Assembly (NCBI GenBank): GCA_027339055.1
Contig: DAHWRK010000001.1
Coordinates: forward strand, 6,289-70,288
Source of the DNA: Candidatus Micrarchaeota archaeon
Lineage (GTDB): Archaea > Micrarchaeota > Micrarchaeia > Micrarchaeales > Micrarchaeaceae
DNA length: 64,000 bases
Reading direction: 5' to 3'
Shown here in pieces: positions 21,896 to 47,504 of the stretch. The position numbers were made by a program, and so were the translations under genes. The notes below the pieces were generated by a model that had not been told where the DNA came from, searched no databases, and saw nothing but the letters and a program-made list of their open reading frames with translations. Each line of letters begins with the position of its first letter. The stretch's first letter is position 1.

Positions 21896-22327
21896 ATGCC
21901 GGTGATTGAAATAAATGACAAAGAATACTCGGAATTGCTCGACAGGGCCTTTTCGAAGCTACCCGCACTAGAAGCGGAAAAATCTGACTTCGTAATACCT
22001 ACTTTAGATTCCATAGTGCAGGGGAACAAGACAATAATAAGAAATATGGCAGTAATTGCGGACAAGGCAAGAAGGGACGTCTCCGACATTGCAAGATATT
22101 TAAGCAAGGAATTTGGAGTGCCGACAAGCATGGAGGACCAGAGGCTGGTACTCACAGGAAAATTCACCCAGGAGCAACTGGACAAGGAGATACATAAATA
22201 TTTTGAAACTTACGTTATCTGCAGGGAGTGCCACAAGCCGGATACGCACCTGGAAAATGCAGGCAGGGGCATGCTCATGCTCGTGTGCGAGGCGTGCGGC
22301 GCAAGATACGGATTGAAGAACTATTGA
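21896..22327 (+). CDS. eif2b: translation initiation factor aIF2 beta subunit
   Basis: QGNKTIIRN and the YVICRECHKPDT...CEACGA zinc ribbon. Confidence 0.95.
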   Translation: MPVIEINDKEYSELLDRAFSKLPALEAEKSDFVIPTLDSIVQGNKTIIRNMAVIADKARRDVSDIARYLSKEFGVPTSMEDQRLVLTGKFTQEQLDKEIHKYFETYVICRECHKPDTHLENAGRGMLMLVCEACGARYGLKNY

Positions 22328-28706: not shown

Positions 28707-29492
28707 ACGGGTGCAATAGAGATTATAAAAAGCGATTATATAAGGGAAATGATAGCCAAAGGCGAGCGAGAGGACAAGCGCGGCGCGATGGATTACAGGA
28801 ATATAGAGATAAAAACTGGTGTCATAGACCATGCCGAGGGTTCGGCACAGGTAGACATAGGAAACACAAGAGTGCTTGCCGGAGCCAAAATAGTGGTAGA
28901 CGAAGTGCATTCCGATACTCCGGACCAAGGCAACATAGTGGTTTCGGCAGAGCTTCTGCCGCTGGCTGCAGCAGAGTACGAAGCAGGGCCGCCAAGCCCT
29001 GAAGCAATAGAGCTCGCAAGGGTTGTCGACAGGGGCATAAGGGCAGGAAACTGCATAAAGCTCGAGGAGCTGTTTTTGGAAGAAGGCAAGGCATGGACGG
29101 TTTACGTTGACGTGTACGTCCTCAACTACGACGGCAACCTTTTCGACGCCAGTACGCTTGCTGCCATGGCTGCAATAGCAAATTCAAGGCTGCCGGCCTA
29201 CAAGGACGGAGTGGCGGATTACAAGGAGAGGAACACTCCGATAAATGTTAATAACATAGTGGCATCATGCACGTTCGCAAAGATAGGCAATGCGATAGTG
29301 CTGGATCCGAGCGGAGTTGAAGAATCGGCAATGGATGCAAGGCTCACGATTGCAACTGACGGAAAGACAGTAAGGGCAATGCAGAAGGGGCTTAAAGGAA
29401 GTTTTACGCTCAAGGAGATTGAAGAACTGGTAGATGCTGCGATCGAGAAGCACAAGGAGCTCGCAAAGCACATCGAAAAGGCAAAAAGATGA
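28707..29492 (+). CDS. rrp42: exosome subunit Rrp42 (probable ACG start at 28707; first ATG is at 28749)
   Basis: AEGSAQV, ELARVVDRGIR and YDGNLFDA motifs. The in-frame extension GAIEIIKSDYIREM follows GGTG-N5-ACG. Confidence 0.95.
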   Translation, partial: TGAIEIIKSDYIREMIAKGEREDKRGAMDYRNIEIKTGVIDHAEGSAQVDIGNTRVLAGAKIVVDEVHSDTPDQGNIVVSAELLPLAAAEYEAGPPSPEAIELARVVDRGIRAGNCIKLEELFLEEGKAWTVYVDVYVLNYDGNLFDASTLAAMAAIANSRLPAYKDGVADYKERNTPINVNNIVASCTFAKIGNAIVLDPSGVEESAMDARLTIATDGKTVRAMQKGLKGSFTLKEIEELVDAAIEKHKELAKHIEKAKR

Positions 29493-44732: not shown

Positions 44733-44843
44733 AAAAACAGCCCTTCAGCTTCCTTGCTCTTTGGTTTTTACATTTATTAATTTATCCGTATTGCTGCGCA
44801 CGTTATTTAATTGATAACTGGAATTTATTATATAGTGATTGGA

Positions 44844-45974
44844 TTGAAGGTGCTCATCGCTCAGGCCAACCTCACCCTCAAGGGAGGCGCCGAAAAGGTA
44901 GTCCTGAAGATAGCCCAGCATTACCGCGCCAGGATAATAACGGCAGAATATGATCCAGAAGGCACATTCCCGGAATATCAAAAGCTGGACGTTGATGTAA
45001 TAGGTGGAAATTCCACGGGTTTTCCGGCTTATGGGAGAGTTTTTCAGGGATTGAAATACGGCCTCGGATTTTATAGCATGAGCGTGGACGAGGATTATGA
45101 TGTTATAAATGCGCATATAGCCCCGAGCCATTGGATAAGGAACAGGAACGAGCGCGTGCTTTGGTATTGCCATACCCCGCTGCGGGACGCGTATGATATG
45201 TACAGGTTCAGGATGTCGATGAAAAAGTTTTACCAGAAACCAGTGCATTATCTTGGCATAAAAGTGGTAAGGCGCATGGACAGGAAAGTGGTAAATAAAA
45301 TAGAACGCATAGTTGCCAACAGCCAGAATACCAAGGGCAGAATAGAAAAATACCTGGGAAGAAGCGATGCCAGGGTACTGGGCGGGGGAATAGACCATCA
45401 AAAGTACAGGAACAGGGGCGACGAACATTATTTTTTATACCCGTCAAGGATATCGCCCAACAAAAACCAGGAATTTGCCATAAGGGCATTTGAAGAATTC
45501 AGCAAAAAGAAAAAGGGATATAAGCTCATATTGATGGGTGCAGTATCGAAAGATGCATTTTACCAAGATTATTATAGGCGCATAGAGGGAATGGCTAAGG
45601 GCAGGAAGGACATCTCCATAATGGCAAATGTAGGCGAGGATGAGTTTAGGGATGCCTATTCGAGGGCGACCGCAGTGCTGTATCCGCCGATAAACGAAGA
45701 TTACGGGCTTGTGCCGCTTGAGGCCATGGCAAGCTCTAAGCCGGTCATAGCGCTCAACCAAGGCGGCCCTAGAGAGACAGTTATTGACGGCAAGACGGGC
45801 TATTTAGTCAGCGACGAGCATTCTATGTGCAACGCAATGCTGAAGATATCCGAGGAACCGGATATTGCCTCGATGATTGGAGAAAATGGGAGAAAACATG
45901 TGATCAAAAACTATTCCTGGAGGCGTTTCTTCACTGAATTCGACAAGGAGCTTAAATTAGCCTCCAAGTCATGA
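44844..45974 (+). CDS. GT4 family glycosyltransferase
   Basis: GGAEKV, WYCHTP and EDYGLVPLEAMAS motifs. Confidence 0.92.
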   Translation: MKVLIAQANLTLKGGAEKVVLKIAQHYRARIITAEYDPEGTFPEYQKLDVDVIGGNSTGFPAYGRVFQGLKYGLGFYSMSVDEDYDVINAHIAPSHWIRNRNERVLWYCHTPLRDAYDMYRFRMSMKKFYQKPVHYLGIKVVRRMDRKVVNKIERIVANSQNTKGRIEKYLGRSDARVLGGGIDHQKYRNRGDEHYFLYPSRISPNKNQEFAIRAFEEFSKKKKGYKLILMGAVSKDAFYQDYYRRIEGMAKGRKDISIMANVGEDEFRDAYSRATAVLYPPINEDYGLVPLEAMASSKPVIALNQGGPRETVIDGKTGYLVSDEHSMCNAMLKISEEPDIASMIGENGRKHVIKNYSWRRFFTEFDKELKLASKS

Positions 45975-45983
45975 AGCGAGGAT

Positions 45984-46334
45984 TTACTTTTCCGGCGGAT
46001 TAAGCGAAATCACGTATTTGGACATTACCTTTGCAACGTATTCCAGTATGCTCTTTACTTCCGGCTCTGTCCTCGCGCCGGTGCATATCATCTTGCCATT
46101 CTTGAATAGTATGACCGTCCTGGATTCGGATATCTTGAATATCGCCCCGGGAAACTGCTCAGGTTCATAGTCAACTGCCTTTACCTCCTTCGAAAGAGCG
46201 TATAGGTCTACGACAGCATGCAGGTCTGCACTGACAACTATGTTGTAAATAGATATTTTAGGAGATTCTAGGCTGCCGGTTTGGGCTCCAGCAGGCTTTG
46301 CATCGCTTTTTTTTGTGCTTTTCTTGTTTGGCGT
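45984..46334 (-). CDS. single-repeat TATA-binding-protein domain protein (probable ACG start)
   Basis: Hand-translated ...IYNIVVSADLHAVVDLYALSKEVKAVDYEPEQFPGAIFKISESRTVILFKNGKMICTGARTEPEV... 116 aa from ACG 46334 to TAA 45984. Confidence 0.85.
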   Translation of the reverse strand, partial: TPNKKSTKKSDAKPAGAQTGSLESPKISIYNIVVSADLHAVVDLYALSKEVKAVDYEPEQFPGAIFKISESRTVILFKNGKMICTGARTEPEVKSILEYVAKVMSKYVISLNPPEK

Positions 46335-46397
46335 TGAACCACCGCAGTTAATAATAAGTTTAAATAGAAAGCTATAAATACCGCAGAGGCGTTTCGC

Positions 46398-47504
46398 TTG
46401 AAAAGAGTAGTTATAGTAGGGGCAGGCATAATTGGCTTGATGATGGCCAAGGAGCTGTCAAGCCGCGGCCTTGAGGCCATAGTTTATGACGGGAAAAAGG
46501 ATGTTTCCGAAGGGTCAGAAAAGGCTTCAGGCATACTGTCAAAGAGAGGCCTTGAGCTCAGCGGCATGGATTATAAGGACAGCATAGTGAATACGCTAAG
46601 AGGGGCAAGGCTTCATTTTGGCAGGCAGACGCTCAAAGTGATAGCCAAAAACGTGCAGGCGTATGTGCTTGACAGGGGGAAGCTTGCCGAGGCCAATCTT
46701 AGGGGTGCGGCAGAGGCAGGAGCAGACATAAGGCTTGGAAGCAGGCTAGATTTAGAAAAGATACGCGATTTTGACGATGGAAATACAGTAATAGTTGGAG
46801 CTGACGGCGCAGTATCTAGCGTTGCAAGGGCTTTTTCATTCCCGCAGATAAAAAGCTTCGTTTTAACGTATAAGGCAGAATACAGGAATGCACGGATAAG
46901 CGACAGAAGCGTTGTTGACCTTTATTTCTCGAAAAGATACGCCCAGGGATTTTTCGGCTGGGTTGCCCCTTATTCCGATTCCGTGGCTGAGCTGGGAATT
47001 GGCATAACGGACAAAATAAAAAAGCACAGCATGATGGCTTTTGACTCTTTCACTGGGGCAGACGAGGTAAAAGAGACCATAGAAGGTGCAGAATTGATTA
47101 AGGGCCATGCAAGCATAATACCAGTTTCAAGAAGGGATAAAACTGCCGAAGGCAATGTTATTTTGGTTGGCGATGCTGCAGGCCAGACCAAAGCAACTAC
47201 TGGAGGCGGCATAATATTCGGGATTGCATGCGCGAAGGTTGCAGCAAGAAGCATTTATCTCAACATTAAAGAAGGAAGGAGGCTTTCGCTTTATGACAGG
47301 GACTGGAGGAAATCTTACGGTGCCGATTTGAGAATGCATGCCGCACTGCACGATTATTATTCTAGGGTAAGCGAAGCGCACATGGAAAGGTTCATAGGCA
47401 TTGCCAAGGCTCTTGGAGCTGAAAGCTTCTTTTCTAAGTACGGAGACATGGACAGCCCTACGCTGATGCTTAAGCGCCTTTTCCTGCGCAAGCTAGTCAA
47501 ATGA
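46398..47504 (+). CDS. geranylgeranyl reductase family FAD oxidoreductase
   Basis: VGAGIIG, GADGAVS, FFGWVAP and GDAAGQTKATTGGGI motifs. Confidence 0.9.
   Translation: MKRVVIVGAGIIGLMMAKELSSRGLEAIVYDGKKDVSEGSEKASGILSKRGLELSGMDYKDSIVNTLRGARLHFGRQTLKVIAKNVQAYVLDRGKLAEANLRGAAEAGADIRLGSRLDLEKIRDFDDGNTVIVGADGAVSSVARAFSFPQIKSFVLTYKAEYRNARISDRSVVDLYFSKRYAQGFFGWVAPYSDSVAELGIGITDKIKKHSMMAFDSFTGADEVKETIEGAELIKGHASIIPVSRRDKTAEGNVILVGDAAGQTKATTGGGIIFGIACAKVAARSIYLNIKEGRRLSLYDRDWRKSYGADLRMHAALHDYYSRVSEAHMERFIGIAKALGAESFFSKYGDMDSPTLMLKRLFLRKLVK

Follow-up and report, generated by a model that had tools for sequence, protein, structure and literature searches.

Can half of a TATA-binding protein (TBP) do the work of a whole one? 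The question is raised by a frame of 116 codons in the window, the 64,000-nucleotide stretch of Micrarchaeota DNA analysed here, which gives one match to the TBP repeat profile PF00352 (frame 45984-46334, minus strand; residues 27-107, profile 2-85 of 85, E 1.8e-20). An earlier note on this DNA had described exactly one TBP repeat with its named motifs and both intercalating Phe residues, and the translation and the profile match bear this out. NIV, YEPEQFPG, LFKNGKMICTGA and Phe residues 61 and 77 follow a Lys-rich tail, the match scores 73 bits against a curated cut-off of 22.9, and the chain holds a single repeat, flanked at either end by stops and genes.

The half-TBP gene and its probable start codon

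Half TBPs of this order come in two types, A and B, which are about 50% identical within one genome; the window gene is of type B. Type B occurs in two families, here called 1 and 3, family 3 being the sister family. The features of the locus, with the basis for each, are the following.

44811..45974, plus strand: convergent GT4 glycosyltransferase gene, a conserved neighbour in position (3' of B in 23/28 family-1 and 8/8 family-3 loci)
45984..46334, minus strand: type B half-TBP gene of 116 codons, counted from the proposed ACG start and ending in TAA (frame, profile match, orthologues)
46014..46256, minus strand: single TBP repeat, PF00352 profile 2-85 of 85 (profile; model matches one lobe of solved TBPs)
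46146..46169, minus strand: YEPEQFPG loop with two Glu (TFB-binding in canonical TBP) and the first intercalating Phe (invariant in 31/31 B and 43/43 A rows)
46257..46334, minus strand: Lys-rich N-terminal tail (sequence and length vary among relatives, always in frame)
46332..46334, minus strand: inferred start codon ACG (in frame after GGTG in 34/47 family-1 B genes, out of frame in 0)
46338..46343, minus strand: Shine-Dalgarno-like GGTGGT, its GGTG 5 nt before the ACG (sequence)
46359..46366, plus strand: TATA-like TTTAAATA, putative promoter of the divergent reductase gene (pattern only)
46373..46380, minus strand: TATA-like TATTTATA, putative half-TBP promoter (pattern only)
46398..47504, plus strand: divergent FAD-dependent geranylgeranyl-reductase-like gene, a conserved neighbour in position (5' of B in 27/28 family-1 loci)

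Because a convergent and a divergent gene flank the type B frame, the stop at 45984 lying 9 nt from the stop of the glycosyltransferase gene and the 5' end 63 nt from the geranylgeranyl-reductase-like gene, there is no space for a second repeat, as the earlier note had seen.

The window's own assembly (54% complete) contains one TBP match in total. Its B locus aligns with that of the single-contig genome G003 over 3301 bases at 87% identity, and the core of the gene differs from those of seven relatives in the genus by 28-50 synonymous and 0-11 non-synonymous changes. The dN/dS values against the window gene are 0-0.02 in five of the seven pairs, dS being saturated in the other two. Named homologues are from Micrarchaeota, including a 119-aa protein of Ca. 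Mancarchaeum acidiphilum (66% identity), and the database entries for B itself are a 160-aa version (97% identity) and an 82-aa hypothetical protein (91% identity). The syntenic single-repeat orthologues that the earlier note had suggested looking for exist in two families, with the same neighbours. A relative with a full two-repeat gene at the B locus was not found; the relatives' B genes are also one-lobed. Judged by these comparisons, the type B gene is real, conserved and under strong purifying selection, in agreement with the earlier argument that intact motifs speak against decay. That B is a piece of a normal TBP left by decay or mis-assembly, as a frame without an ATG, GTG or TTG start in so incomplete an assembly might suggest, is refuted by the orthologues and has next to no probability, given a size and neighbours that are constant across two families, a dN/dS of 0.02 or less and the long alignment to G003.

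Two small peculiarities of the B proteins were also seen. The loop before the fourth strand (window 45987-46280, minus strand) is one residue shorter in B of the genus and of G016, and a Tyr stands just ahead of NIV in the genus, where other B proteins mostly have Gln.

No ATG, GTG or TTG lies ahead of the domain in the type B frame of the window. The ACG proposed as its start stands 5 nt after GGTG, which is also the commonest GGTG-to-ATG spacing in this genome (46/69). Across family 1, ACG occurs 4-6 nt after GGTG and in frame in 34 of 47 B genes, representing 18 of 24 genera, and is never out of frame even with tails of 18 to 43 codons before the motif anchor (the B locus of G042, which was not parsed, is left out of the start-codon count). 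In three B genes an ATG stands in this context, and ATG without an ACG start is seen in 11/47 family-1 and 7/8 family-3 B genes; the family-1 A genes have ATG in all cases (27/27). The comparison thus supports ACG well as the start of B, and such a start would be expected to affect the level of the B protein. It also matters for annotation, as the databases would then carry the wrong 5' end for this protein. Contigs from three RNA runs gave only pieces of less than 115 bases, of other organisms' RNA, and none across the ACG. Loss of aIF1, which is described as discriminating against non-AUG starts in archaea (PMC6237735), was considered as a cause of the odd starts and is ruled out, aIF1 being present with an ATG start in 5/5 single-contig genomes.

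Unusual starts were noticed on other genes too. An Rrp42-like exosome gene with two RNase PH domains (window 28707-29492, plus strand) has an apparent ACG start after GGTGA; over 27 genomes the Rrp42 start is ACG in four, and most of the others have ATG at the same place. The aIF2-beta gene (window 21911-22327, plus strand) appears to start with ATA after GGTGA in the genus (9/9 genomes) and with TTG in many relatives outside it. It is a start-selection factor with a weak start, from which self-regulation could follow. Outside the window, contigs C5, C8 and C33 of G000 have frames in which a CTG, ATA or ATC after GGTG is the candidate start, no canonical start codon lying further upstream. Many TBP genes of other Micrarchaeota families have TTG or GTG after GGTG (L094, L096, L097, L098, L099, L104, L071, L086, L106, L107), and weak starts may be more widespread among TBP genes.

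A TATA-like element similar to that of the window gene lies at the same distance 5' of many B genes, as judged by eye. The earlier note had connected a symmetric TBP with bidirectional promoters. However, the two-lobed TBP of Pyrococcus is reported to fire both ways from one TATA box (PMC6640164). The divergent arrangement here therefore does not speak for a special role, and the connection is not a distinctive one. Genome-wide, and with crude gene calls, a TATA-like word was present in 41/110 tandem and 56/124 divergent upstream regions, and the upstream profile, on the same calls, contained no clear mirrored BRE signal. A sigma-70 promoter scan was discarded as unsuited to archaea.

Two types of half TBP and their distribution

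In a first sample of 41 genomes, 39 had a PF00352 match, and the 69 loci covering these matches were inspected. TBP genes with one lobe only were found in 37 of the 39. The remaining two genomes, G017 and G029, each also have a two-lobed TBP gene; both of these genes group with non-Micrarchaeota TBPs, that of G029 lies on a 3.7-kb contig, and we read them as contamination or transfer. A native two-lobed TBP was not found in the searched genomes of the order. This speaks against a two-repeat TBP elsewhere in the genome, a point that the earlier note had wanted checked, and the suggested competition with canonical TBP is not supported.

The A and B genes are unlinked, and A is present in nearly all relatives. 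Type A genes are divergent from rpl21e and rpo4, at the site where the two-lobed TBP of other Micrarchaeota is found. The nearest called upstream frame is the rpl21e cluster at 16/27 family-1 A loci, and the rpl21e cluster or rpo4 at 16/21 two-lobed TBP loci. Type B genes adjoin the glycosyltransferase gene in both of their families. The whole A locus, including rpl21e, is absent from the window's assembly; we read this as an assembly gap and assign an A gene to the window organism from its genus.

The distribution was tallied over 86 genomes at least 90% complete, including the unpublished G057 and G127, among the matches listed. On this basis B is present in 52/53 near-complete genomes of family 1, with at least two TBP matches in 51/53. 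Among the matches listed for family 3, 15/33 near-complete genomes have B plus a second match and the other 18 a single non-B match, 17 at type A scores and one weak. The presence of B follows genus, with eight genera having it, seven lacking it and none mixed, and no genus with B alone was found in the 86 genomes, again among the matches listed. In a single genome, G087 (92% complete, 30 contigs), B is the only type seen. The B gene of G012 is cut by a contig end and was excluded from the trees; its place in the distribution comes from inspection of the locus. For two of the A-only family-3 genomes, each a single contig, A must be sufficient without B, and if a saddle is needed, this would require A to pair with itself.

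Beyond these families, B was found neither in 14 half-state genomes of eight other families nor in one family-2 genome. Those 14, all inspected, come from a wider sample of the phylum and carry A-like halves only; in the same sample, 38 genomes from six families have at least two matches, with 21 of the 38 inspected and all 21 two-lobed; both counts are among the matches listed. Some genomes hold additional copies: G115 has three A-like half genes (L077, L106, L107), and G102 and G139 apparently have two A-scoring genes plus B.

Proposed pairing of the halves

The AlphaFold model of B (pLDDT 74.7) has the TBP lobe fold of five strands and two helices and matches one lobe of solved TBPs. Its 44 structural matches at E <=0.001 are TBP chains wherever listed, and Foldseek aligns it to PDB 1MP9 at E 4e-6 with a TM-score of about 0.7 over the query. 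F43 and F59 are invariant in the 31 B rows, N13 and T67 are conserved at 90% or more, and the two loop Glu, E39 and E41 (C.L3.2 and C.L3.4), are invariant in both B and A. The Asn and Thr presumably face the DNA, and we take the other Phe to be intercalating as well. By these predicted roles, B keeps all of the DNA-facing and TFB-binding motif residues. In canonical TBP the two loop Glu bind TFB, and a role for the L5.1 Phe is described in the same source (PMC7221094). Each of five single-contig genomes has one TFB gene, and a second TFB dedicated to B was looked for there without result.

The dimer structure prediction proposed by the earlier note gave a B-B complex model exactly at the pass mark, with a score of 0.42 (best of three controls 0.00; one run 0.38; pLDDT 81), its runs agreeing in at least 85% of contacts. 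The mark is one that 20/30 solved self-pairs and 1/23 solved single chains reach, and the resemblance of B to solved TBPs may account for the pass. The modelled interface consists of the antiparallel first strand and the long helix, which we take to be the lobe-lobe contact of canonical TBP, and the B-specific residues at it are Ile9, Val16, His21, Ala22, Met/Leu64, Leu79 and Ala83.

Against lobe profiles from 121 outside TBPs, 65/66 A proteins are N-lobe-like and 24/35 B proteins C-lobe-like, with differences of a few bits, and Leu79 is common to B and to the C-lobes of two-lobed Micrarchaeota TBPs. These lobe-type residues of B are a hint of A-B pairing. At the positions predicted to be in contact, A and B showed no significant covariation (33 genomes, p 0.24), and the interface residues of A showed no difference between family-3 genomes with and without B. 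Complex prediction covered the B-B pair, which reached the mark; the A-B pair is a candidate from sequence signals and gene distribution.

The genomes have only one-lobed TBP genes (37/39), two unlinked half genes each and one TFB gene (5/5 single-contig genomes), and we consider it very probable that TBP works here as two separately encoded halves in a pair. In the mechanism that we propose, the B lobe would pair with the separately encoded A half, rebuilding the DNA-bending saddle, which would recruit the single TFB. The halves are predicted to join through their antiparallel first strands and long helices, like the two lobes within one chain. A-A would be the older and sufficient form; B would have arisen before the split of families 1 and 3 and would take the C-lobe-like place in A-B, restoring asymmetry, with some B-B possible. 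The ACG start, together with a strong ribosome-binding site, would set the supply of B. We hold the chances to be evenly balanced that A-B is the main form for B. The weak start codon counts against it, being more in keeping with a minor or regulatory subunit than with a partner in strict 1:1 ratio; ACG and ATA starts occur here on core complex subunits too.

The earlier note had itself favoured a homodimer. A self-pair can indeed be modelled (0.42 against 0.00, at the mark), and to that extent the proposal stands. It does not stand as the favoured form, because nearly all relatives have an unlinked A half gene and a mixed pair is at least as likely. In its present shape the proposal is that B pairs mainly with itself and, as a symmetric second TBP next to A-A, serves only some promoters or conditions. 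Residues specific to B are concentrated at the modelled interface, as expected if B avoids A, all DNA-facing and TFB-binding motif residues are retained, and Methanosarcina provides a precedent of several TBPs with one TFB (PMC5501381). However, the model scores exactly at the mark, with one run below it, and may reflect likeness to solved TBP; a genus with B alone was not found, and the C-lobe-like leaning of B and N-lobe-like leaning of A suit a mixed pair. We regard this reading as unlikely, if still worth serious attention.

The retained motifs bear differently on the idea that B is a low-abundance regulator, entering A pairs and damping or redirecting initiation, with the stringency of start-codon selection governing its level by way of the ACG. 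The ACG kept in 18/24 family-1 genera beside ATG in 27/27 family-1 A genes would suit such a role, as would the presence of aIF1, with its described discrimination against non-AUG starts (PMC6237735), in 5/5 single-contig genomes. Yet B has lost none of its functional motifs, is conserved at least as well as A (mean identity 0.75 vs 0.71 in 25 family-1 genomes), and starts with ATG and no ACG in 7/8 family-3 and 11/47 family-1 genes, which makes a regulator improbable.

Origin of the halves and comparison with known TBPs

In the repeat tree, all Micrarchaeota repeats, that is the halves and both lobes of the two-lobed proteins, form one clade (100/100) apart from the outside N and C lobes. With wider outgroups the clade is kept at 95/93 with one unnamed protein inside, sister DPANN phyla not being identified among the tips. 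B is one clade (100/99), and the ML trees group A with B. These trees were built on 88 columns and their bootstraps are not fully settled. In an RNA polymerase tree (1273 columns, 30 genomes, rooted on three euryarchaeal genomes), the half-state families branch at the base as a paraphyletic group, and nested among them the two-lobed families make one clade (98/99), so that two changes suffice. Based on these trees, the simplest reading is that one lobe was lost at the base of the phylum and that re-duplication followed at least twice; part of the same pattern could also be produced by gene conversion between lobes. A half TBP that survives from a primordial homodimer is disfavoured, as the trees point to a derived half.

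Several individual sequences deserve mention here. P0004-P0007 are two-lobed TBPs, each with two nearly identical repeats of type A that fall among the family-3 halves, a recent re-duplication. P0231 joins a type B first half to a type A second half and is probably an assembly chimera, possibly gene conversion. P0124-P0126, P0140 and P0228 are two-lobed with the Micrarchaeota signature in both lobes, P0124-P0126 forming a clade of their own.

The same trees speak to whether an ancestral two-lobed TBP was split into A (N lobe) and B (C lobe), which would work as an obligate heterodimer, with B lost from the A-only lineages. The N-like scores of A and C-like scores of B agree with this, and the AU test rejects neither B grouped with outside C lobes (p 0.17) nor B grouped with outside N lobes (p 0.16). 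It is nevertheless a poor prospect: all Micrarchaeota repeats form one clade apart from the outside N and C lobes, whether in the first tree or with wider outgroups, 18 family-3 genomes, two single-contig ones among them, manage with A alone, and the absence of B from the 14 half-state genomes of eight other families and the family-2 genome searched would need many losses.

Returning to loss followed by re-duplication, we tentatively suggest, at somewhat less than an even chance, that the Micrarchaeota ancestor ran transcription on a symmetric one-lobe homodimer, and that asymmetry re-evolved both by tandem re-duplication (at least twice) and through a free B, dosed by its ACG and converging on the C-lobe. 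If true, the steps by which TBP arose would be repeated in the living cells of this phylum, where A-A and A-B pairs and re-fused proteins could be compared.

No paper on a lineage with half TBPs only was found in a search of mostly open-access main texts, nor, in the same kind of texts, one joining Micrarchaeota or Micrarchaeum with TBP in transcription initiation. The main text of one study mentions single-lobe archaeal versions in one sentence in which Micrarchaeota are not named, and its supplementary alignment may list some (PMC7221094). TBP is only listed as conserved in DPANN elsewhere (PMC8407392). Archaeal TBP is described as generally monomeric (PMC5501381), and its origin by single-domain duplication has been inferred in a study that treats the known single-domain proteins as accessory (PMC3597702). 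Whole Micrarchaeota families appear to run on one-lobe TBPs, and the proposed dimeric stage is thereby open to direct study. The questions raised include whether DNA is bent by a TBP of two chains, how direction is set by TFB on a symmetric saddle, and what asymmetry buys.

B resembles canonical archaeal TBP (PDB 1MP9, 2Z8U, 1PCZ/1AIS) in its fold, motifs, TFB-binding Glu pair and Phe residues. The canonical protein, in contrast, has PF00352 twice and two lobes per chain, where here there is one lobe, two unlinked genes and a putative ACG start. The two-lobed TBPs of other Micrarchaeota (Anstonellales and others) share with the halves their clade and the type A slot beside rpl21e and rpo4; they differ in having two lobes per chain, and their families are nested among half-state families (98/99). 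As described in PMC3597702, Halobacterial TbpA is like B a single TBP-type domain that clusters with true TBP lobes, and the Thermococcales monopartite proteins (such as P. furiosus NP_578195) are likewise about 90-100 aa with one TBP domain. However, TbpA is non-essential and stands beside full-length TBPs of the same species, and the Thermococcales proteins are strongly diverged, form their own cluster and coexist with normal TBP (PMC3597702). Our trees were built without either of these groups, and one Halobacterium plasmid locus holds a two-lobed TBP. The window protein matches true TBP lobes at E values down to 5.5e-35. In the searched genomes of this order it is not an accessory domain beside a full-length TBP, no native one having been found, and the half state, unlike TbpA, spans much of the phylum. 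We conclude that B is likely to be part of a TBP variant whose saddle is built from separate halves.
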